Part shown: piece by piece, positions 11,410-63,292 of the stretch
Layout: every line of letters starts with the position of its first letter
Numbering within the stretch: position 1 is the stretch's first letter
DNA from: Escherichia phage BEU50
Length of the DNA stretch: 64,000 nt
Strand: one strand, 5' to 3'
Sequence record: OM632671.1
Notes under the pieces: generated by a model
The model's database searches: none
Told to the model about the DNA's origin: nothing
What the model saw: only the letters and a program-made list of their open reading frames with translations
Made by a program: the position numbers and the translations under genes

Positions 11410-11886
11410 ATGATTATCAATGAAAACTCTTGGCACTTTAAAATTTATGCCGCGTTCAATAGTACATGGAATCGTCCGAAAACGTTATGTGCTTATTTTT
11501 GGAAAACGTTTCTCCCGGTATTGGCTGCTTCAATTATTGGATTTGCGATTTTAGCAGCAGTCACAATCATTGGCCAGGAAATTTTAACTAAATTCTTTGT
11601 TTTTAGCAGTCTATGGACATTAGTTCTGGCTTCAATTGGTGTAGGCATTTTAATGGTAGCAGTCATGGCTTTTATTGCTACCGGGTTGGTAATTGGTCCG
11701 TCTTGGTTGTTAGACAAATATAACGACAGAAAATATTATAAAGAAATTGAGCTCATTGCACAAAACCAAGAACGAATTAAAAATGGACTTGAGCCTATTG
11801 AACGTAAGAAATCGATTATCGTTGAATTTTTAAAAGCTCGTAAAGCTAAAGTGTGTCCTACTCTTGAATACAAGCCAGGCAAATGA
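11410..11886 (+). CDS. hypothetical membrane protein (158 aa)
   Basis: Two hydrophobic helices. Confidence 0.5.
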   Translation: MIINENSWHFKIYAAFNSTWNRPKTLCAYFWKTFLPVLAASIIGFAILAAVTIIGQEILTKFFVFSSLWTLVLASIGVGILMVAVMAFIATGLVIGPSWLLDKYNDRKYYKEIELIAQNQERIKNGLEPIERKKSIIVEFLKARKAKVCPTLEYKPGK

Positions 11887-12665
11887 ATTATATCAAATGT
11901 TATGATGCAATAATTCAACGAGGAAAACTTAGAGGCAGTGATAAGTCTGAGTTGAATTATTATACTGAATCCCATCACATAATCCCTTCATGTATTGGAG
12001 GGAGTGATGACCCGAGTAATAAAGTTTTATTGACTGCCAGGGAACATTTTATCGCTCATTGGTTATTATCAAAAATTCACCCAAACTCTGAAGGATTGAT
12101 TTACGCTTACTGGGCGTTCTATAATTTAGGCGAAGATGCTTTAGGACGAAATCTTAAATTAACCTCAAGAGGCTATAAAGACGTAAGGGAAAAGTTTTCA
12201 GAAATTCACTCTAATAGAATGAAAGATATATGGGAATCACAAGAATATCGTGATAAGCGTTCAGCGACCATGAGCCTCCCTGAGATAAAGGCTAAAATGT
12301 CAGATTCTCAAATAGAGGCACAGAATAGACCTGAAGTTAAAGCAAAAATATCTACTGCTATCAAAGAGGCCTTTAAGAGAGATGATGTTAAAGAACGGCA
12401 TTCAAGAGCTGTTAAAAAGGCCCTAGATAATCCAGAAACTAAAAAGAGACAGTCTGAAGCGTCTAAAGCTAGACAACGAACTGGTAAACACTGGGAAGAT
12501 TATGATATGCTTTACGAACTTTGGATTAAATTGAATCGACCTAAGCGTGGGGCTTTCGGAACCCATATTAGTAAAATGGGTTATCCTAAATCAAATTACC
12601 AACGCTTAATATTACAGTTCATTGAAGATTATGAAAGGAAAGTGAATAATGAAAACGATTGTTAA
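11883..12665 (+). CDS. HNH homing endonuclease
   Basis: MNY N-terminus; HHIIPSCIGGSDDPSNKVLLTAREH motif; C-terminal NUMOD-like repeats. Confidence 0.8.
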   Translation: MNYIKCYDAIIQRGKLRGSDKSELNYYTESHHIIPSCIGGSDDPSNKVLLTAREHFIAHWLLSKIHPNSEGLIYAYWAFYNLGEDALGRNLKLTSRGYKDVREKFSEIHSNRMKDIWESQEYRDKRSATMSLPEIKAKMSDSQIEAQNRPEVKAKISTAIKEAFKRDDVKERHSRAVKKALDNPETKKRQSEASKARQRTGKHWEDYDMLYELWIKLNRPKRGAFGTHISKMGYPKSNYQRLILQFIEDYERKVNNENDC

Positions 12666-13635
12666 GGCTTACTTTGGTAGCCACCTTTATGGAACGTCTA
12701 CCCCTGAATCTGACGTTGATTTTAAAGAAATTTATGTCCCTCATGCTCGTGATATCTTGACCGGTAACGTTAAAGAACATATGAGCAAGAACACGAATAA
12801 CACATCTTCTAAGAACACAAAAGACGACGTGGACCATGAGTTATATAGTCTCAAATATTTCTTTAAACTAGCTGCAGATGGTGAAACTGTCGCATTAGAT
12901 ATGCTTCACACTCCACCAAGTCTAGTAGTTAAATCTGATTTGCCTGATGTATGGAAGTATATTCAAGATAACAGGTCTCGTTTCTATACCACTAACATGA
13001 AATCTTATTTAGGGTATGTCCGTAAGCAAGCTTCTAAATACGGTGTCAAGGGTTCTCGACTGGCTGTTCTTCGTCAAGCCCTTAAACGTTCTAATGAATG
13101 GGGACAATACTTTGATAATGGTGCAGTAATTCGTTTATCACATATGAAGAATGTTCTGCCTGTAGGTGAATTTGCTTCATGGGTTGAAACCGAAAACGAG
13201 AAAACAGGTAAGCAAACATTCTATAATCTGTTAGACCGTAAATTCCAAGATACGTTAACCAATAAAGAGTTCAATGCCATCCTGGTTAAACTGGAAGAGA
13301 ACTACGGTGAACGTGCTCGTAAGGCGGAAGCCAACGAAGGTATTGACTGGAAAGCATTGAGTCATGCATGCCGTGGTGGACTTCAACTATTGGAAATTTA
13401 CAAAACCGGCGACCTGGTTTACCCACTTCAGGATGCTCCATTTATTCTCGATGTTAAGCTTGGTAAACATACGTTTAAAACTGTACAAGAATTCCTAGAA
13501 GATATCGTTGACCAAGTTGAACAAGCATCAGAACAAGCCGCTAAGAACGGTATGCAACAAAAAGTAGATATGAGTTTCTGGGATGACTTCCTTGAACAAG
13601 TCTATCTCGAAAATCATAATTCTTACTATAAATAA
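12649..13635 (+). CDS. predicted nucleotidyltransferase (Pol-beta-like fold)
   Basis: YFGSHLYGTSTPESDVDF minimal NTase motif. Confidence 0.55.
   Translation: MKTIVKAYFGSHLYGTSTPESDVDFKEIYVPHARDILTGNVKEHMSKNTNNTSSKNTKDDVDHELYSLKYFFKLAADGETVALDMLHTPPSLVVKSDLPDVWKYIQDNRSRFYTTNMKSYLGYVRKQASKYGVKGSRLAVLRQALKRSNEWGQYFDNGAVIRLSHMKNVLPVGEFASWVETENEKTGKQTFYNLLDRKFQDTLTNKEFNAILVKLEENYGERARKAEANEGIDWKALSHACRGGLQLLEIYKTGDLVYPLQDAPFILDVKLGKHTFKTVQEFLEDIVDQVEQASEQAAKNGMQQKVDMSFWDDFLEQVYLENHNSYYK
13627..13634 (+). promoter_or_regulatory. late promoter core TATAAATA
   Basis: Exact TATAAATA upstream of the secreted ORF at 13667. Confidence 0.45.
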
Positions 13636-14028: not shown

Positions 14029-14066
14029 AGACCTATCGAAACGAAATGAGTAAATTGGAGAATAAA

Positions 14067-15047
14067 ATGTTCAACGTTCAAATCAAAAAAGGTATCTATC
14101 GTAATAACGAAATCTCTGGTTCTTATGTTGCCACAAAGACATGGTTCCCGGCAAAGCTTAATCCTGAATGTTCCCACTTAGGTGATGGTAAAATTTTCGT
14201 TATGATTGATGGTTCTGAACGTGGAGTATGGGTCTTCAAATCAGACATCGTAATGGAAGGAGTTGAGACATCTCCAGTTTCAGTTGTTGAAAGCACTGAA
14301 GATATGAAAACTCGTATCAACAAACGCTTTAAAGTAATGAACATGATGACGAATGGCATTATCGATGGCAAAATTCGTTCACTCATTATTTCAGGTGCAG
14401 CCGGTATTGGTAAGACGTATTCTCTGGATAAAGCACTTAATAATGCTAATGATAATGGTTTCATCAAATACAAAAGCATTAATGGTAAAATCTCTGGTAT
14501 TGGCCTTTACGAACAACTTTGGCTCAACCGTGATGCATACAGCGTTCTCTTAATCGACGACGTTGATGTATTCTCAGATATGGACATCTTGAACCTTCTT
14601 AAAGCAGCATTAGATACCGGAGATAAACGCAAAGTTTGTTGGAGCACTGCGTCATCTTATCTCGATGATAAGGGTATTGATAAAGAATTTGAGTTTGAAG
14701 GTACTATCGTTTTCATTACAAACGTTGATATCGATAAAGAGTTAGAACGCGGTTCGAAACTTGCTCCGCACCTTCAAGCTTTAGTATCTCGTTCAGTGTA
14801 TTTGGACCTTGGAGTACACTCTAATGAAGAGATTATGGTTCGAGTTGAAGATGTAATATTATCTACTGACATGATGCAGAAACGTGGCCTGACGGATGCA
14901 GAAACGTATAAAGCATTGTCCTGGATGAAGGCTAACGTATCTCGTCTTCGCAATGTATCATTACGTACGGCTCTTTATGTAGCGGATTTTATTTCAACTG
15001 ATAAAGATGGTTGGGAGGAAATCTCTGAAGTAACTTTACTGAAATAA
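14067..15047 (+). CDS. P-loop NTPase of unknown function
   Basis: Walker A GAAGIGKT, Walker B LLIDDVD; ATG 14067 has the better SD. Confidence 0.55.
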   Translation: MFNVQIKKGIYRNNEISGSYVATKTWFPAKLNPECSHLGDGKIFVMIDGSERGVWVFKSDIVMEGVETSPVSVVESTEDMKTRINKRFKVMNMMTNGIIDGKIRSLIISGAAGIGKTYSLDKALNNANDNGFIKYKSINGKISGIGLYEQLWLNRDAYSVLLIDDVDVFSDMDILNLLKAALDTGDKRKVCWSTASSYLDDKGIDKEFEFEGTIVFITNVDIDKELERGSKLAPHLQALVSRSVYLDLGVHSNEEIMVRVEDVILSTDMMQKRGLTDAETYKALSWMKANVSRLRNVSLRTALYVADFISTDKDGWEEISEVTLLK

Positions 15048-15185: not shown

Positions 15186-15473
15186 ATGGATTTTATGCAA
15201 AAAATTAAAGCCGCAGTCGAACTCTATGCTCATCGTATGGTTAGTTCTACAATGCAATATAGCGAGGAGGTTCGCCAGGACTCTTCCTTGAAAGGAAAAA
15301 CTAGAGCCTTAATTACCTTAGACCGTCTACAAAAGAATGCCATAGAGATGCTCCAGTACGACAAGGGTGTATATAAGAAAGAACAGGAAGAGAAACTTAA
15401 ATCTGAAAAATTACAAAAAATCCCGAAGTCTGTTTGGTTCAGTGGAAAAAATACCGAAAAAAGTTTCTTTTAG
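15186..15473 (+). CDS. hypothetical protein (95 aa)
   Basis: ATG after AGAGGA. Confidence 0.45.
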   Translation: MDFMQKIKAAVELYAHRMVSSTMQYSEEVRQDSSLKGKTRALITLDRLQKNAIEMLQYDKGVYKKEQEEKLKSEKLQKIPKSVWFSGKNTEKSFF

Positions 15474-15475
15474 TT

Positions 15476-15510
15476 GTTTACAAGGTCTATGGTTATGTTA
15501 TTATAGACCT
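15476..15510 (+). promoter_or_regulatory. early promoter inside 8-bp inverted repeat
   Basis: GTTTAC 15476-15481; AGGTCTAT / ATAGACCT; TATTAT 15499-15504. Confidence 0.5.
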
Positions 15511-15531
15511 ATCAACTACTGGAGGTAAAAC

Positions 15532-16059
15532 ATGAACGCTAAAGATATTTTCAACCTGGTAAATTATAACGACGGTAAATTTAAATCTGAAGCACAAAGC
15601 AAGTTCTTTAATGACGTTGCTTATGGTAACGAGATTACCGTGGACGGAGGTCAGATTTTCAAATCTCGCTGGAATTGGATTGTTATCATCGATTCAGTTG
15701 GAATTGTGGAAGTCTACAAAAACACTAACAAAAAACGTACATTATTCTGGTCTCGTGAAACTAACGAGCAGTACAAAAAGGATAAAGCATCTCGTTTATC
15801 CAAAGTAACCCAGGAAGATATCGAGTTTATCAAGAAAGATATCGAGATGTACGAAAATTTAATCGCTGAAGACCAGGCAGTACTCGATAAGTTTGATGAA
15901 ATTAAAGCTTCTCGTGAAATCCCTGACTTCATGAAAGAAACAGTAAACGAACGATACGCTCTCACTTCAGAACGTATTGCAAACTATACAAAACAGAAAG
16001 CAGAACGTATTAGTACTCTTCGGAAATTTGAAGAACGTTTAAAGACGGTTCACGCATAA
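15532..16059 (+). CDS. hypothetical protein (175 aa)
   Basis: ATG after GGAGGT. Confidence 0.5.
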   Translation: MNAKDIFNLVNYNDGKFKSEAQSKFFNDVAYGNEITVDGGQIFKSRWNWIVIIDSVGIVEVYKNTNKKRTLFWSRETNEQYKKDKASRLSKVTQEDIEFIKKDIEMYENLIAEDQAVLDKFDEIKASREIPDFMKETVNERYALTSERIANYTKQKAERISTLRKFEERLKTVHA

Positions 16060-16061
16060 AC

Positions 16062-16086
16062 GCTTTACCCAAGGACGGGTTATAAT
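16062..16086 (+). promoter_or_regulatory. promoter of the CCAAGGA-spacer subfamily
   Basis: GCTTTACCCAAGGACGGGTTATAAT. Confidence 0.4.
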
Positions 16087-16121
16087 GGTTTTGAGTTCCA
16101 ATTCAATCTGAGGAAATAGTT

Positions 16122-17117
16122 ATGAGCATTACATCTGATGCGGTAAAACATGAAATTAACGGTTTATGTGCTTCACAGATTAAAGTGTGGTTTAAAGACC
16201 ATAATGATCGCAGAGCACTTAATTATGAGCAAATTGCTATCCAAGTTCATCAATTACTGACTAGTAAATTTGATTTTCATATGCCGTCTGAAATCTATAC
16301 TAATCTGCCGCGAGCGCTTATTAAAGCGTGTAAAGGTTACGGAAAATCAATGGCTGATGGAATCTTCAGCGCGCTGAATAAACTTAACGTTCTGTCGATG
16401 ATTAACTCTAACAACATCCTGCGTAATCTAGGACGTACTGATTTGTTCGGTCGTGAACAGTGTAAAATGCCTTTGAAATGGATTGTTGCTCATCTTAACG
16501 AGAACCAAACACGTTTTATGGCCGTATCAGCACGCTTACAAATGGGTCTAGATCGTCAGATGAACTTTAAAACTCATCCATGTTATTCAGGTTCAACAGA
16601 CTTTTATAAATGTGAGCTTCAAAAGGTTGGTGGCAAAACTGTCTTAGTAGTTCGTGTAACGTTTGAAGGACGACGTCAAGGATATTTTAACCTAATCGGC
16701 TCTGGTCTTAAACATTGTGGATTTATCGACGAAGTTGATATCAAGCGAGACGGCACTGGATATCGTATTGGATATGTTTGTACTCTTAAAGAAGAGATTT
16801 CAGGACCAGCTCCAGGACTAAAAGATGTTAGATATAAAGATGAGCTCGTTGAAGAAATAAAAGAAGTTGAATATGATATCAACCAAGAAGATGCTCTTAA
16901 AGACCTTATTGATGAACTAAACCAAGACGTTATTCCGGTTCAGAAATTTGAATCAAAACATGCTGAGCAAATCAAATACTTTGAAGCTTTGATTAACGAA
17001 CTTAATGTAACTATTCAACAGACCGACGATGAAATCTCACGATTAGCAGGCTTAAACGGTAAAAATAAAACAGAACGAGCTAATCTTATTCAAGTAGTAA
17101 AACTTCTTAAGGAATGA
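16122..17117 (+). CDS. hypothetical protein with C-terminal coiled coil (331 aa)
   Basis: Own promoter and SD. Confidence 0.55.
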   Translation: MSITSDAVKHEINGLCASQIKVWFKDHNDRRALNYEQIAIQVHQLLTSKFDFHMPSEIYTNLPRALIKACKGYGKSMADGIFSALNKLNVLSMINSNNILRNLGRTDLFGREQCKMPLKWIVAHLNENQTRFMAVSARLQMGLDRQMNFKTHPCYSGSTDFYKCELQKVGGKTVLVVRVTFEGRRQGYFNLIGSGLKHCGFIDEVDIKRDGTGYRIGYVCTLKEEISGPAPGLKDVRYKDELVEEIKEVEYDINQEDALKDLIDELNQDVIPVQKFESKHAEQIKYFEALINELNVTIQQTDDEISRLAGLNGKNKTERANLIQVVKLLKE

Positions 17118-17146
17118 TGTACAACCAAGGATGGTTGGAGTATAAT
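17116..17146 (+). promoter_or_regulatory. early promoter, CAACCAAGGATGGTTGG subfamily
   Basis: TGTACA..CAACCA-agga-TGGTTG..TATAAT 17141-17146. Confidence 0.5.
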
Positions 17147-17172
17147 AAATTTTTCAACATGAGGAATATAAA

Positions 17173-18132
17173 ATGGCTTTTATTACACGTAGAGAACTTA
17201 TCAAAGAATTTACCTCGAACGCATATACTCCAGGACCTAATCCTATCCGTATGCCTGTAAAGACTCCTGAAGAGATTGAGGAAATCTGTTCATATTATGG
17301 GATTACTTCTCGTAAGTTTACTCAATTTGAATGCGTTACTAACACACCCGTTAAAGAGTTCATTAAAAATGGTGAGTTCAGCCGTTTATTAGCCAAACAG
17401 AAACTTCGTAATTTTTGTATTGGTGGTGAAGGACAATATTTCGCTAAGCAGTTCCGGAATAACCTTAACAATCTGATGGCCATTGCTTCTCGTATTCGTC
17501 CTCAAGCAATTAACATGAAACATTTGAAATATACTTACGATAAGTTAGAAATCATGGTTATCGGTGAGAACGAGTTCACTCTTACGTATAAACCTAAGAA
17601 TGATAACGTTGCTCGTGTATTCCACCAAGCGTTGGAAGTTTTAGGTGATAATATCCACCAGATTAAAGCAATTTATTCTCGTGAGCTTAATATTATCGAC
17701 CCTATCAAGAATAAGGGCCATATCGCTATCCAGGCTCGTGTATCTATTGGTAAAAAGGTTCCTGCGCCATGGTGGCACAAAGACTCTGAATACTATCAAA
17801 ATCTTAAAAAGGAAAATGCATTGTTTGAAGCATCGCTTACTGGGACCCCAATTGAACAGGCCGAAGTCCTAAGTGCTTATTCTACTTCGGGTAAATCAAT
17901 GTTTAAAGGTTTGCCAAATGTGTGCAAACTGTCTGCAGTAAAACTAAATGTTTCTAATGACCTTCTTCCGGCCGAAGATTACCGTTACAATCAAATCAAG
18001 GCCACTATGGACCAACTGTCTGTTGAACTTGACAAAGCACAAGCTAAGCTTCGTGATGCTCAAAGTGTTGTAACGAATCTCCAGTTGCAGTATTCTAAAC
18101 TTTTTAACGCAATGAATGCATTAAAATCATAA
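17173..18132 (+). CDS. hypothetical protein with C-terminal coiled coil (319 aa)
   Basis: Own promoter and SD. Confidence 0.55.
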   Translation: MAFITRRELIKEFTSNAYTPGPNPIRMPVKTPEEIEEICSYYGITSRKFTQFECVTNTPVKEFIKNGEFSRLLAKQKLRNFCIGGEGQYFAKQFRNNLNNLMAIASRIRPQAINMKHLKYTYDKLEIMVIGENEFTLTYKPKNDNVARVFHQALEVLGDNIHQIKAIYSRELNIIDPIKNKGHIAIQARVSIGKKVPAPWWHKDSEYYQNLKKENALFEASLTGTPIEQAEVLSAYSTSGKSMFKGLPNVCKLSAVKLNVSNDLLPAEDYRYNQIKATMDQLSVELDKAQAKLRDAQSVVTNLQLQYSKLFNAMNALKS

Positions 18133-18136
18133 AATA

Positions 18137-18166
18137 GTTTACAACCAAGGATGGTTGGAGTATAAT
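18137..18166 (+). promoter_or_regulatory. early promoter, CAACCAAGGATGGTTGG subfamily
   Basis: GTTTAC 18137-18142, TATAAT 18161-18166. Confidence 0.55.
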
Positions 18167-18194
18167 GAATCTATCTTAACGAGAGGAAAATATT

Positions 18195-19145
18195 ATGACA
18201 CGTTCACATTACATTGAATACTTTGCAGGTCTTATCGCTAACGTTCATGCCCAACGTGCTTCTGGTTCATTAGGATTTGATGTTCCACACCGAGATGTAG
18301 TAAGTGGTATTCTTCGAGATTTTGGTACATACATAGGCCAAGAAAATCATATCTGTAAAGATACTCAAAATGCGTATTCTCATTCGTTAGGGACGTTGCT
18401 TCAATGGTTCAAACGTTCTCGTTTATTATCTTCTACTGTAGCTCGCGATAACATTAAAAACTTTATGAAGCCGAGCTTTATTAAATCTGTGACATCTAAA
18501 ACCGATTTGGTTGAATTCACTATTGTTAATGATGTTAAAAAGACTCATTTGGCTGATTGGTTAACTACCATTCCTGAAACTAAATTTGCTGATAAATTTG
18601 CTTGTGAATTCAATAACCAAGTGAATATGCTTTTTAAACATTCTCGTAAATTATTCACAGGCGGCGATGATCGTACAAATAAAGTTCATGCTAAAGATTG
18701 GGTTACTGCAGTGTTCAAACCAACCGGTAATGGTACCGCATCATTATCAATTGATATTCAGGTTCCTTATTATTACTCACGTAATCTCGGCACCATGAAA
18801 GCTGAAGAAATTAAGAAGCACAATAAAACCATTCGTTCGCTGTCTTATAAACTTCGCATGATGTTAAGAATCATGGACGTGGTAGAAATGTATGATGAAA
18901 CCGAAGATAATGGTTCAATGTTATACAGTTCTCGCATTCAAATTAAGTTGAAGAACCCTAACGAGTATAAGCCTAAGCCTATTAAAGAGCCTAAAGCAGA
19001 AAAAGTTGATAACTTAAGAGAAGAACGCGAATATCTCAAATCTCGTCTGAAAGAAGTCGAAGCCCAGATTGCAGAACAAACTAAATCATTAAAAGCTCTG
19101 AATGCAAAAGCGGATGGTTTACGAAATGCCATTGAGGTTTTATAA
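18195..19145 (+). CDS. hypothetical protein with C-terminal coiled coil (316 aa)
   Basis: Own promoter and SD. Confidence 0.55.
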   Translation: MTRSHYIEYFAGLIANVHAQRASGSLGFDVPHRDVVSGILRDFGTYIGQENHICKDTQNAYSHSLGTLLQWFKRSRLLSSTVARDNIKNFMKPSFIKSVTSKTDLVEFTIVNDVKKTHLADWLTTIPETKFADKFACEFNNQVNMLFKHSRKLFTGGDDRTNKVHAKDWVTAVFKPTGNGTASLSIDIQVPYYYSRNLGTMKAEEIKKHNKTIRSLSYKLRMMLRIMDVVEMYDETEDNGSMLYSSRIQIKLKNPNEYKPKPIKEPKAEKVDNLREEREYLKSRLKEVEAQIAEQTKSLKALNAKADGLRNAIEVL

Positions 19146-19450
19146 TGAAACTACGTCTTTTAGAGGATATTGATATGAGCACTAATCATGACTTGGTTAA
19201 GTTTATTGACGATAGTTCAAAGATTGAATTTGTTCAGCGAGATAAAATCCACGGTGAAGAAGAGTTCGTTCCTCCGGCATGGAACGAAATCATGAAAATG
19301 GTTGAACGACGTGAAAATGCTGCCAAATCGGCAGCAAAACATCCATGTCCGGAATGTGGAACTATCCAAGTCCAACTGGTTAACTGGACCACTGATAACT
19401 TGAAATTGAAATGCCGTAAATGCTTCCACAAATTTGAGAGAACATTATAA
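19145..19450 (+). CDS. zinc-ribbon protein (101 aa)
   Basis: CPECG...CRKC motif. Confidence 0.5.
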   Translation: MKLRLLEDIDMSTNHDLVKFIDDSSKIEFVQRDKIHGEEEFVPPAWNEIMKMVERRENAAKSAAKHPCPECGTIQVQLVNWTTDNLKLKCRKCFHKFERTL

Positions 19451-19863
19451 TGAGATATAGCCTTCGTTGTTTTATTGCAGCTTTAGTTTTTGCCATCATT
19501 CCATTCATTTGGAACAGCCAGAATACTTACATGGAAACTAAAGTAATTCCTGTGGAGGTAGTGGAATTAATTTCAGGTCAATCTACAGGAAAATATTCTA
19601 AATTAGAATTTATTGCCGTCTATAAAGATGAGCAAGGACGAGTTTTTGACAGGCGTGTATCACCGTCGTTTTATACGCTTCTGAATAAAGGTGATACGAT
19701 AGCTATAGAAATTCGTGAGATGGATATCAAACAAACTACTAAAGATAACCTGATTTGGTTCTTTGGTACAGTGTTGATGTTCTCTATCGGTATCACAGGT
19801 TTTATTACATGTATTGTATTTGGTGTTGCATATTTAATCGATGAAAGGAAAAATAATGTTTAA
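19450..19863 (+). CDS. hypothetical membrane protein (137 aa)
   Basis: N- and C-terminal hydrophobic helices. Confidence 0.5.
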   Translation: MRYSLRCFIAALVFAIIPFIWNSQNTYMETKVIPVEVVELISGQSTGKYSKLEFIAVYKDEQGRVFDRRVSPSFYTLLNKGDTIAIEIREMDIKQTTKDNLIWFFGTVLMFSIGITGFITCIVFGVAYLIDERKNNV

Positions 19864-20119
19864 AGTGTACGGGTATGACTCTACTATTCACCGTTGTGTT
19901 TTCTGTGATAATGCGAAAAGATTGCTGACTGTTAAGAAACAGCCATTCGAATTCATTAATGTTATGCCAGAAAAAGGTGTGTTCGATGATGAGAAAATTG
20001 CTGAGCTTCTGGTTAAGCTTGGTCGTGAATCACAAGTCGGATTGACTATGCCTCAAGTGTTTGCTCCTGACGGAAGTCACATTGGTGGATTTGACCAACT
20101 GCGAGAATATTTTAAATGA
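19856..20119 (+). CDS. nrdC: glutaredoxin/thioredoxin NrdC
   Basis: MFKVYGYDS..CVFCDNAKRLL matches T4 NrdC; start moved to ATG 19856. Confidence 0.9.
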   Translation: MFKVYGYDSTIHRCVFCDNAKRLLTVKKQPFEFINVMPEKGVFDDEKIAELLVKLGRESQVGLTMPQVFAPDGSHIGGFDQLREYFK

Positions 20120-61789: not shown

Positions 61790-61819
61790 GTTTACAACCA
61801 AGGACGGTTGGAGTATAAT
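61790..61819 (+). promoter_or_regulatory. early promoter, CAACCAAGGA subfamily
   Basis: GTTTAC 61790-61795, TATAAT 61814-61819. Confidence 0.55.
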
Positions 61820-61850: not shown

Positions 61851-62345
61851 ATGAATATCAATACTACGGCTACTTACATCCTGAAAGACGAAAAACAAAT
61901 CAACTGGTACGGTGCTTCAGTGAGAGCTTATGAAAAGTTTTGTGAAATTTTAGGTGCCACTCAAGGTAATAGTTTCACTATTGTTAACTTCATCAAACAA
62001 GCTGAAGGCCCTTGGTTATTCTTAGAAATTAAAAATTCATACGGTACAATTTCTACTACCGCCCTTCCAAGCACCGACTTTGAACTGTTGATTGAAGAAG
62101 TAGAACCCGGTAAAGACATCTGTATTGATATGGATATCGCTTGTATGTACGGTACTCTGATTAAGCCTATTGAGCCTACTGATTTGTTGTGTAAAGCTGT
62201 TTCAATTCGACGTCCGTTCGCAGGTCCAGTGAGTGGATGGGTAACTGATCAATGGATTGAAGACGGTGTTGAACTTCTGAACGTTGTTCATGCAGGTGAT
62301 TTTAGTGTAGTTCCACGTAGTGCTGTGGTTAATATCCTTAATTAA
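61851..62345 (+). CDS. member of a tandem paralogous family (164 aa)
   Basis: Shares C-terminal GWVTDQWIEDG...LNVVHAGDFSVV with the next two genes. Confidence 0.55.
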   Translation: MNINTTATYILKDEKQINWYGASVRAYEKFCEILGATQGNSFTIVNFIKQAEGPWLFLEIKNSYGTISTTALPSTDFELLIEEVEPGKDICIDMDIACMYGTLIKPIEPTDLLCKAVSIRRPFAGPVSGWVTDQWIEDGVELLNVVHAGDFSVVPRSAVVNILN

Positions 62346-62346
62346 T

Positions 62347-62378
62347 GTTGTACATCCAAGGATGGATGGAGTATAGTG
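62347..62378 (+). promoter_or_regulatory. early promoter, CCAAGGATGG subfamily
   Basis: TTGTAC..CCAAGGATGGATGG..TATAGT. Confidence 0.45.
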
Positions 62379-62407: not shown

Positions 62408-62863
62408 ATGATTACTATTGGTGAAATTAAGCGTGTATCGTCTGCATCTCGTTCTAAAGCTGCAGGTCGTCTAGTTGAAGTGGTAGGACTTCGTACTAAT
62501 GGTACTGGTCGTGTTAAAGAAGTTAAAGTTCGAATCATTCCTAGTTCTGGAAAAACTGAAACTCAGTACGCTTACGTAAGTCCTAAATTTTTGGAAACTC
62601 CTGTGAGCGCTCATTTTGCTTCTACTGAACCTAATGCACAGTTCAAATGGGCCCTTTGCAAAGGTGTTGAATTCCAGACGGATAAAGAATTTGACTTCAT
62701 CGATGAATACGGTTATCCAAGCAAAACTGATACTATGTGTGGCTTCATTAGTGACCAATGGGTTGAAGATGGTGAAAAGTTATACAATATCGTATTCTTA
62801 GGTGACTTCCGAGTTGTTAAAGAATCTGAAATCACTCGCTATGTGTCTCCTCGTAAAGCTTAA
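62408..62863 (+). CDS. member of a tandem paralogous family (151 aa)
   Basis: GFISDQWVEDGEKLYNIVFLGDFRVV; ATG 62408 after AGAGAG. Confidence 0.55.
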   Translation: MITIGEIKRVSSASRSKAAGRLVEVVGLRTNGTGRVKEVKVRIIPSSGKTETQYAYVSPKFLETPVSAHFASTEPNAQFKWALCKGVEFQTDKEFDFIDEYGYPSKTDTMCGFISDQWVEDGEKLYNIVFLGDFRVVKESEITRYVSPRKA

Positions 62864-62872
62864 GGAATTATT

Positions 62873-63292
62873 ATGAATATTGTAAATCTCTCTACAGGTG
62901 ATTATGTATATGTATCCGTTGCTTCTCGCTCTAAAGTTGCCGGGAAGTTGGTTGAAGTTCTTTCTGTGAGTGATCCGGTTTTTGGACGTAACGAAGTTAA
63001 AGTTCGTGACGCTGATGGTAACATTGGTTATGTCTCAAGCCAATTCATTGAACCAGAAGAAAAAGCGTTCAAATGGGGACTATGCAGATCAGTTTCTGTT
63101 GAAAAAGACCATGAATTCACTATTGCTGCGGCAACTGATGGAACACCGTGGAAAACTAAGCAAATCGCTGGATTTATTAGCGACCGTTGGGTAGAAGATG
63201 GTGTTAAGCTTTATAACATCGTTTTCGCTGGACAGTTCATGGTAGTTCCTGAATTCCAAATTAAAAAATATAGCCCAGCTGCTTTCGCATAA
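62873..63292 (+). CDS. member of a tandem paralogous family (139 aa)
   Basis: GFISDRWVEDGVKLYNIVFAGQFMVV. Confidence 0.55.
   Translation: MNIVNLSTGDYVYVSVASRSKVAGKLVEVLSVSDPVFGRNEVKVRDADGNIGYVSSQFIEPEEKAFKWGLCRSVSVEKDHEFTIAAATDGTPWKTKQIAGFISDRWVEDGVKLYNIVFAGQFMVVPEFQIKKYSPAAFA

Follow-up and report, generated by a model that had tools for sequence, protein, structure and literature searches.

Three consecutive open reading frames (ORFs) of nearly the same size lie between positions 16122 and 19145 of a 64,000-nucleotide (nt) stretch of Escherichia phage BEU50 (sequence record OM632671.1; this whole stretch is called the window below). They raise the question whether they are diverged copies of one exchangeable accessory gene or unrelated genes that merely look alike. 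A first-pass annotation, made from the sequence alone, had described three successive genes of similar size, and their exact coordinates were confirmed. ORF1 (16122-17117), ORF2 (17173-18132) and ORF3 (18195-19145) are all located on the plus strand and encode proteins of 331, 319 and 316 amino acids (aa), respectively. In all three cases a GAGGAA ribosome site is found 6-8 nt ahead of the ATG (16110-16115 for ORF1), and the longest opposite-strand ORFs within them do not exceed 68 aa. The best explanation, which we regard as moderately probable as a whole, is that the locus corresponds to the variable nrdC.3-nrdC.6 segment of a T4-type genome and forms an array of promoter-equipped early or middle accessory genes, i.e., of promoter-bounded cassettes that would have a common ancestor and would act against host defence.

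The nrdC.3-nrdC.6 locus and the exchange of its genes

Positions 16000-19300 share 98-99% identity with Mosigvirus (RB69-like) phages, among them a20, JK36 and mar005P1, and the sequence assigns the window to a T4-type phage genome of this Mosigvirus type, with a reading direction opposite to that of the T4 map. The three ORFs are flanked by homologues of T4 nrdC.8 (15532-16059) and T4 nrdC.2 (19145-19450), and the gene order nrdC.8, ORFs, nrdC.2 is common to the window and T4. The number of members differs, i.e., the phage of the window has three, whereas T4 has four (NrdC.3, NrdC.4, NrdC.5 and NrdC.6). Comparison with the annotated T4 record revealed that ORF1, ORF2 and ORF3 are the counterparts of NrdC.6, NrdC.5 and NrdC.3, respectively. 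The earlier statement that the proteins have no obvious similarity to known proteins was wrong, as T4 NrdC.6 (E 1e-18), NrdC.5 (E 1e-8; 8e-123 for its family DUF7235) and NrdC.3 (E 9e-121) were matched. Judged from these matches, ORF1-ORF3 are members of the long-annotated nrdC.3-nrdC.6 genes, which are annotated in hundreds of genomes and lie in a well-known hyperplastic region of the T4-type phages.

The firmest result of the analysis is that the genes at this locus are exchangeable, as had been supposed in the first-pass annotation, and this could be seen directly in other phages. In the Mosigviruses AV110 and F27, ORF1 is directly followed by ORF3, and ORF2 is precisely absent. At the junction the ORF2 promoter is present up to its TATAAT, and then an ORF3-type leader follows, which in AV110 is identical to that of the window. 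A stretch of 27 nt is identical before ORF2 (copy A, 17120-17146) and before ORF3 (copy B, 18140-18166), with the sequence TACAACCAAGGATGGTTGGAGTATAAT. The junction lies inside this repeat and thus matches the expected product of recombination within it. The exact deletion of ORF2 at this promoter repeat is a clean example of accessory-gene shuffling.

Exchange was also seen within a gene. In Tequatrovirus REP4 the flanking proteins are 93-98% identical to those of T4, whereas its NrdC.3 shares 89% identity with ORF3 and just 63% with T4 NrdC.3. The first ~60 and the last ~30 residues of REP4 NrdC.3 are T4-like and the centre is ORF3-like, and the breakpoints are thus within the gene. The same ORF3-type centre in a T4-like backbone was found in Tequatrovirus PD112, which also lacks nrdC.4. 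Such allele swaps are natural experiments that could map a specificity region, as the centre of NrdC.3 differs between T4 and REP4 and the ends are conserved. Between the window and T4 the flanking proteins are 78-83% identical, in comparison to 30-58% for ORF1-ORF3. Lastly, DNA of the respective allele type was present in 152 (ORF1), 132 (ORF2) and 511 (ORF3) records of the phage collection, and these differing numbers indicate separate histories of the three genes.

Families and ancestry of the three proteins

ORF1 shares 30-34% identity with T4 NrdC.6 and matches phrog_2257 over the full length (E 3.8e-127). In addition, PF26899 is contained in the precomputed annotation of its 99%-identical cluster representative (P0001) and of all 108 relatives. 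An acidic insert of ~32 aa (residues ~237-268) is present in ORF1 and absent in the T4-type proteins. The T4 reference nrdC.6 (275 aa) itself looks frameshifted close to its 3' end (NC_000866, 7997-8130). The other frame encodes ...DDEIFRLSGLSSKAKSEREKLIKIVDLLKS, which is the conserved tail of 296-aa homologues, and extends to the ribosome site of nrdC.5.

ORF2 is a full-length member of DUF7235 (PF23882), with 410.1 bits, an E-value of 8.2e-123 and coverage of profile positions 1-307 of 307 (the gathering score is 30 bits). T4 NrdC.5 matches the same profile over its full length (420.6 bits, E 5.3e-126). The two proteins are about 25-30% identical (25% over 308 aa in BLASTP), and they have in common the Pfam family, the genomic position and a C-terminal coiled-coil tail ending with ...KL..A...LK. 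One difference is that ORF2 has its own early-type promoter, while T4 nrdC.5 has none.

ORF3 belongs to the NrdC.3/NrdC.4 family (phrog_1435, E 1.6e-105) and is, like ORF2, a basic protein with an isoelectric point (pI) of 9.4. It shares 56-58% identity with T4 NrdC.3, and T4 NrdC.4 was also matched by BLASTP (E 1e-4). In T4 this locus holds NrdC.3 and NrdC.4 as evident tandem paralogues, and both form one family with ORF3. A HMMER search with ORF3 against 1.84 billion representatives yielded four hits, i.e., NrdC.3-type proteins, fragments and one coiled-coil match, and no distant relatives. The stop codon of ORF3 and the start codon of the nrdC.2-like gene overlap in TAATG. An exact match to GTTTAC-N18-TATAAT is present at 19117-19146, within the last codons of ORF3 and ending at this overlap, which could be an internal promoter for the downstream genes or a chance match. 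The 90%-identity cluster with ORF3 (316 aa) also contains NrdC.2 proteins of 101 aa, and these may be fused read-through variants across the TAATG or a clustering artefact.

A lack of obvious similarity among the three proteins had been noted before, and this holds for BLASTP, which gave no match between ORF1, ORF2 and ORF3 (E > 3). For a comparison at the family level, 19 T4-like loci were taken from IMG/VR and all their ORFs were clustered (single-linkage). In these loci the stretch from nrdC.8/9 to nrdC.2/nrdC always contains one to four proteins of ~270-390 aa from a limited set of families, namely C6 (NrdC.6), C5 (NrdC.5), C34 (NrdC.3, NrdC.4 and ORF3 in one cluster), and f75, f106 and f68 from other genera. 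The last 65 residues, which comprise the coiled coil, were removed before the profile tests, and the database for the hidden Markov models (HMMs) consisted of ~1,100 proteins from these loci. For each trimmed family HMM the best outside matches were other families of the set, with E-values of 2e-5 to ~0.1. Examples are f75 to C6 (2.4e-5), C34 to f75 (2.7e-3) and f68 to C6 (4e-3). The exception was the f68 profile, for which an unrelated family ranked second.

Pairwise hhalign comparison of the trimmed profiles gave probabilities of 89.7% for C5-C34, 76% for f75-f106 and 69% for C34-f106, whereas the controls did not exceed 5%. The values were 5.8% for C6-C34 and 22.8% for C6-C5, the latter with the aligned regions out of order. 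When f75, f106 and C34 were merged, the probabilities were 82.5% against C6 and 86.8% against C5, and a merged profile of f75, f106 and f68 reached 93.1% against C34 and 81.7% against C6. With both merged profiles the aligned regions were in matching order. The family f30 (~260 aa), which other genera carry at this locus, was considered as a possible further member and was rejected, as it had no link in the profile tests.

The AlphaFold2 (AF2) model of ORF1 has a mean predicted local distance difference test score (pLDDT) of 70.8. It comprises a helical domain at residues 1-141 (block-mean pLDDT ~80-93), a strand-strand-helix-strand unit at 162-221 and a low-confidence linker at 223-277. A Foldseek search of BFVD with this model retrieved its own family first, and then uncharacterised proteins of 300-335 aa from T4-like phages of Enterobacter, Acinetobacter and Klebsiella (E 1e-6 to 1e-4). 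The match from Enterobacter phage IME523 (E 1.5e-6) belongs to f75, with 82% identity. The model also matches a 308-aa Tequatrovirus protein (E 4e-3), which by its length and label only is probably NrdC.3. The order of the secondary-structure elements is the same in the models of ORF1 and ORF2. The ORF2 model is poor (pLDDT 45), and its matches in BFVD are hints at most. An N-terminal TR..(Y/L)I..F motif is common to NrdC.3, NrdC.4 and ORF2.

Searches beyond this set of families gave no further relatives. Word-indexed searches found relatives solely in T-even phages or in phage-like contigs labelled E. coli or Shigella. Sequence searches of the PDB with all three ORFs yielded chance-level matches only, and Foldseek with the ORF1 model against the PDB gave nothing below E 0.02, with template modelling scores (TM-scores) below 0.25. 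NCBIfam gave nothing meaningful, no Pfam domain of known function was matched, and the separate PHROG of each ORF carries no functional annotation.

The three proteins were also reported in the first-pass annotation to end with a coiled coil, and this was borne out. A simple, hand-made heptad score (not COILS), which was applied to windows of 28 residues and calibrated by shuffling, had its best window close to the C-terminus in each case, i.e., at residues 281-308 of ORF1 (z 3.7), 271-298 of ORF2 (z 3.8) and 274-301 of ORF3 (z 5.5). Three neighbouring genes that served as controls stayed below the threshold (z at most 2.6). In ORF1 the heptad-like helical tail is encoded at 16962-17114 on the plus strand (residues 281-330), with AF2 helices at residues 281-307 and 313-330. 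In ORF2 the heptad score and AF2 agree on a long helix with a heptad-like tail at 17971-18129 (plus strand, residues 267-318), and in ORF3 the heptad score places the tail at 18981-19142 (plus strand, residues ~263-316). A predicted coiled coil of at least four heptads in a predicted helix is thus present, the helices being taken from AF2 for ORF1 and ORF2. The best heptad window is likewise C-terminal in T4 NrdC.3, NrdC.4 and NrdC.5, and in most families the tail ends roughly with (Q/E)R.KL..A(L/I)..LK.

The proposal of a diverged paralogous family is supported as probable, short of proof, by the C5-C34 value, by the merged profiles in comparison to the controls and by the match of the ORF1 model to f75. 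A common ancestor of ORF2 and ORF3 is highly likely, and a common ancestor of all three proteins is likely with somewhat less certainty. In the literature that was searched, no description was found of NrdC.3, NrdC.4, NrdC.5 and NrdC.6 as one diverged family.

Promoter elements and the spacer hairpin

All promoters were assigned by sequence match. The early-type promoter of ORF2, TGTACA-N17-TATAAT, is located at 17118-17146 on the plus strand and agrees with the sigma-70 consensus at 10 of 12 positions. The promoter of ORF3, GTTTACA-N17-TATAAT (18138-18166, plus strand), agrees at 11 of 12 positions and is the best sigma-70 match of a 9.5-kb scan, and in phage NBG1 a promoter has been annotated at the equivalent place. 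Both elements have the sequence of T4 early promoters (sigma-70 type). Throughout the window, GTTTAC-N18-TATAAT with at most one mismatch occurs 12 times, all on the plus strand, versus 0.85 expected.

The element ahead of ORF1 is different. The MotA box has the consensus (a/t)(a/t)(a/t)TGCTT(t/c)A and is followed, at a distance of about 12 +/- 1 bp, by a -10 element TAnnnT. The ORF1 element (16058-16086, plus strand) has a box of this type, aaaCGCTTTA, at 16058-16067, followed by a 13-nt spacer and TATAAT at 16081-16086, and it agrees with the core of the box at 6 of 7 positions, with C replacing T. The same layout with a spacing of 12-13 nt precedes nrdC.6 or nrdC.7 in T4 and further T4-like phages; in more distant members of the T4-like group it precedes the large ORF that occupies this position. 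The ORF1 element fits a candidate T4 MotA-box middle promoter rather than a -35/-10 early promoter. The TGCTT Mot box is cited in PMC4122927.

According to the first-pass annotation, each ORF has its own promoter of one subfamily. One part of this claim stands, as the spacers of all three elements have a common core (in the ORF1 element CCAAGGACGG); another part has to be modified, as the ORF1 copy is a shortened, middle-type variant. The core CCAAGGAYGG is found five times in 64 kb, versus 0.08 expected, and every copy is in a promoter spacer, whereas the remaining T4-type early promoters of the window have unrelated spacers. The two copies beyond ORF1-ORF3 start at 61798 and 62356. They belong to a fourth and a fifth member of the promoter subfamily on the plus strand, i.e., GTTTACAACCAAGGACGGTTGGAGTATAAT at 61790-61819, ahead of a 164-aa ORF, and TGTACATCCAAGGATGGATGGAGTATAGT at 62348-62377, which has a compensatory change in the stem and lies ahead of the next paralogue. 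The genes behind them form a second tandem array downstream of dda-like and dexA-like genes (61851-62345, 62408-62863 and 62873-63292, encoding 164, 151 and 139 aa). Its three members are paralogous (BLASTP E 1e-10 to 1e-32), and the first two are preceded by the CCAAGGAYGG promoter subfamily.

The core is the loop plus the inner stem of a small palindrome. The hairpin reads ACCC/AAGGAC/GGGT before ORF1 (16067-16080) and CAACCA/AGGA/TGGTTG before ORF2 (17122-17137), where GGAG is next, and the same hairpin followed by GGAG is present before ORF3 (18142-18157), all read from the sequence of the plus strand. The hairpins of the fourth and fifth copies are at 61796-61811 and 62354-62369. Across copies and phages the stems vary and are still complementary (CAACCA/TGGTTG, CATCCA/TGGATG, ACCC/GGGT, CCACA/TGTGG, GCCA/TGGC and TACCA/TGGTA), while the loop AGGA (AAGGAY) is conserved and, in the early-type copies, GGAG comes after the stem. 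In nine distinct hairpin copies, part of which had been gathered by a scan that demanded a stem, 90.7% of the cells were paired, in comparison to 62% after shuffling and 18-41% with the partner slid. Compensatory changes on both sides were seen in four of six hairpin pairs. Thermodynamic z-scores of the intergenic RNAs were significant for that of ORF2 only, so that covariation carries the argument for the hairpin. The covariation of the stems favours base pairing in a single strand over a sequence-specific binding site for a dimer. An Rfam scan of 15400-19600 found no RNA family. The hairpin has a putative role in RNA processing, in transcription control or as a recombination site, and it is a small element that is amenable to experimental tests of a regulatory or recombination function.

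In T4-like phages, composite promoter-stem-loop cassettes (PeSLs and PmSLs) have been suggested as sites at which genes are shuffled (Arbiol et al. 2010, PMC2839356; Comeau et al. 2014, PMC4122927). The elements of the window resemble PeSLs in that they are repeated early promoters (TTTACW-N17-TAYWAT) with a Mot-box variant and a stem-loop, and in that they lie in the hyperplastic region at the boundaries of insertions or deletions, as is the case for the AV110/F27 junction. They differ in the position of the stem-loop, which is just upstream of the promoter in the published PeSLs, whereas the hairpin of the window is inside the -35/-10 spacer. The conserved AGGA loop with its covarying stems is a further difference. 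In the literature that was searched, no description was found of a covarying spacer hairpin in this form or of domain-level allele swaps.

Possible function, alternative explanations and neighbouring genes

The sole experimental datum for these families comes from T4 nrdC.5. Dsr1 is a sirtuin defence that is overcome by this early gene (PMC9391042). A T4 clone that had lost nrdC.5 failed to plate both on ECOR17 and on MG1655 with dsr1, and plasmid-expressed nrdC.5 alone restores plating of T4 on dsr1+ cells (Srikant et al. 2022, PMC9391042). According to a 2026 preprint, major capsid proteins of phages are what the sensor domain of Dsr1 recognises (PMC12803255).

The analogy to T4 NrdC.5 suggests that the three proteins may be inhibitors of host immune proteins that are made early in infection. 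They most likely arose from one ancestor. In each of them a short and conserved N-terminal part precedes a central globular region, which diverges fast and comprises a helical bundle and then a strand-strand-helix-strand unit, and the coiled coil at the C-terminus probably drives oligomerisation. The variable centre would set the target, and ORF2 could block the sensor of Dsr1 before capsid protein appears. Each gene would travel with its own promoter, the repeated promoter elements would act as recombination points, and in this way whole cassettes would be gained or lost and central domains swapped among phages. A functional analogue is DSAD1, a phage protein that is reported to bind and block the SIR2-type NAD-depleting defence protein DSR2 (PMC10981675, PMC11087589). 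The kind of action is the one proposed here for the NrdC.5 family; the target (DSR2) and the phage group are different, and no sequence or structural relationship was found or is claimed. If the three proteins are indeed paralogues of T4 NrdC.5, ORF1, ORF3 and their many alleles are candidates for novel functions against host defence in the T-even phages, which are workhorses of phage therapy.

Several observations weigh against this explanation. With the sole protein that has been tested, ORF2 shares only about 25-30% identity, and a transfer of function is thus uncertain. Among the NrdC.3-NrdC.6 families only NrdC.5 has a reported function, and the strongly basic character of ORF2 and ORF3 (net charge +12) is also compatible with nucleic-acid binding. 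As to the common origin, the links between the families depend on intermediates and on probabilities below 95%, and deeper profiles of the ORF1 family (A3) and the ORF2 family (A4) reached just 0.2% in hhalign. The Foldseek TM-scores were low (0.25-0.55), which is expected for multi-domain models with flexible linkers, and the ORF2 model is unreliable at its pLDDT of 45. An HMM of the last 32 residues, built in a leave-one-family-out scheme, was weak and missed the ORF1 family, and is thus no proof of homology of the tails.

These observations would in part be explained if the three genes were unrelated, had separate functions, and were alike in size, tail and promoter type because the same promoter cassette had been recruited. 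The absence of BLASTP matches and the A3-A4 value would then be as expected, Pfam and PHROGs assign the proteins to three separate families, coiled coils converge easily, and the tail HMM is weak. However, the tail-less profiles gave signals in matching order (89.7% for C5-C34 and 82-93% for the merged profiles, versus at most 5% for the controls), the best outside matches of each profile were nearly always other families of the set, the ORF1 model matches f75, which links to C34, and at this locus NrdC.3 and NrdC.4 are evident paralogues in tandem. We therefore regard independent origins as unlikely.

Two further proposals concern the function. The proteins might be subunits of one hetero-oligomeric complex, joined by their C-terminal coiled coils and devoted to a single task that is, e.g., DNA- or RNA-associated. 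Such a complex would be in line with adjacent genes of similar length, with the heptad tail in each protein, with the pI of 9.4 of ORF2 and ORF3, and with a possible co-transcription, as there is no terminator-like plus-strand site between the genes. It is quite improbable in view of the independent loss and gain of members (ORF2 in AV110 and F27, nrdC.4 in PD112, a single large member in other genera), the different distributions of the alleles (152, 132 and 511 records) and the activity of T4 NrdC.5 when expressed alone in trans (PMC9391042). The product name 'thioredoxin' in many GenBank records, including AV110, F27 and moha, together with the proximity of nrdC and nrdD, would suggest thioredoxin-related proteins of redox or nucleotide metabolism. 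This label was rejected as a name transfer from 'nrdC.x', since AV110 and F27 carry it on every annotated gene from nrdC.10 through nrdC. No thioredoxin or glutaredoxin family was matched in Pfam or NCBIfam, and the ORF1 model is mostly helical, has no PDB match and does not show a thioredoxin fold. The real NrdC is encoded by a 92-aa ORF at 19841-20119 (87 aa from the likely start). Judged by sequence, a thioredoxin-like role of ORF1-ORF3 is extremely improbable.

The explanation by promoter-bounded accessory cassettes can be extended to a wider, tentative proposal, whose joint truth we rate as rather doubtful. NrdC.3-NrdC.6 and the proteins of 300-390 aa at the same place in other T4-like phages might all be one modular family of blockers of immune sensors, in which a constant N-terminal stub and the C-terminal coiled coil would frame a hypervariable centre that chooses the defence to be neutralised. 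Diversification would proceed by gain and loss of cassettes and by swaps of central domains, guided by the promoter hairpin with its conserved AGGA loop, which would itself be a regulatory or a recombination element.

Several neighbouring genes of the window were also inspected. A homologue of nrdC.7, a predicted membrane protein with 41% identity to that of T4, is located at 19450-19863, with the nrdC.2-like gene on one side and nrdC on the other. The nrdC.7 gene of T4 comes immediately behind the MotA-type promoter and has nrdC.8 and nrdC.6 as its neighbours, and the comparison points to a displacement of this gene inside the same region. On the other side of the ORFs, an RlaP-type nucleotidyltransferase that is nrdC.11-like (PF10127, E 1e-12) is encoded at 12649-13635, and an nrdC.10-like AAA/STAND-like ATPase with weak P-loop matches at 14046-15047. 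These two neighbours are 78-80% identical to their T4 counterparts and are thus conserved far better than ORF1-ORF3. Upstream of the nrdC.11-like gene, a mobD-like homing endonuclease ORF of 260 aa (11883-12665) is present in the window and in T4, and it is absent at that place in near-identical relatives (L002-L004).

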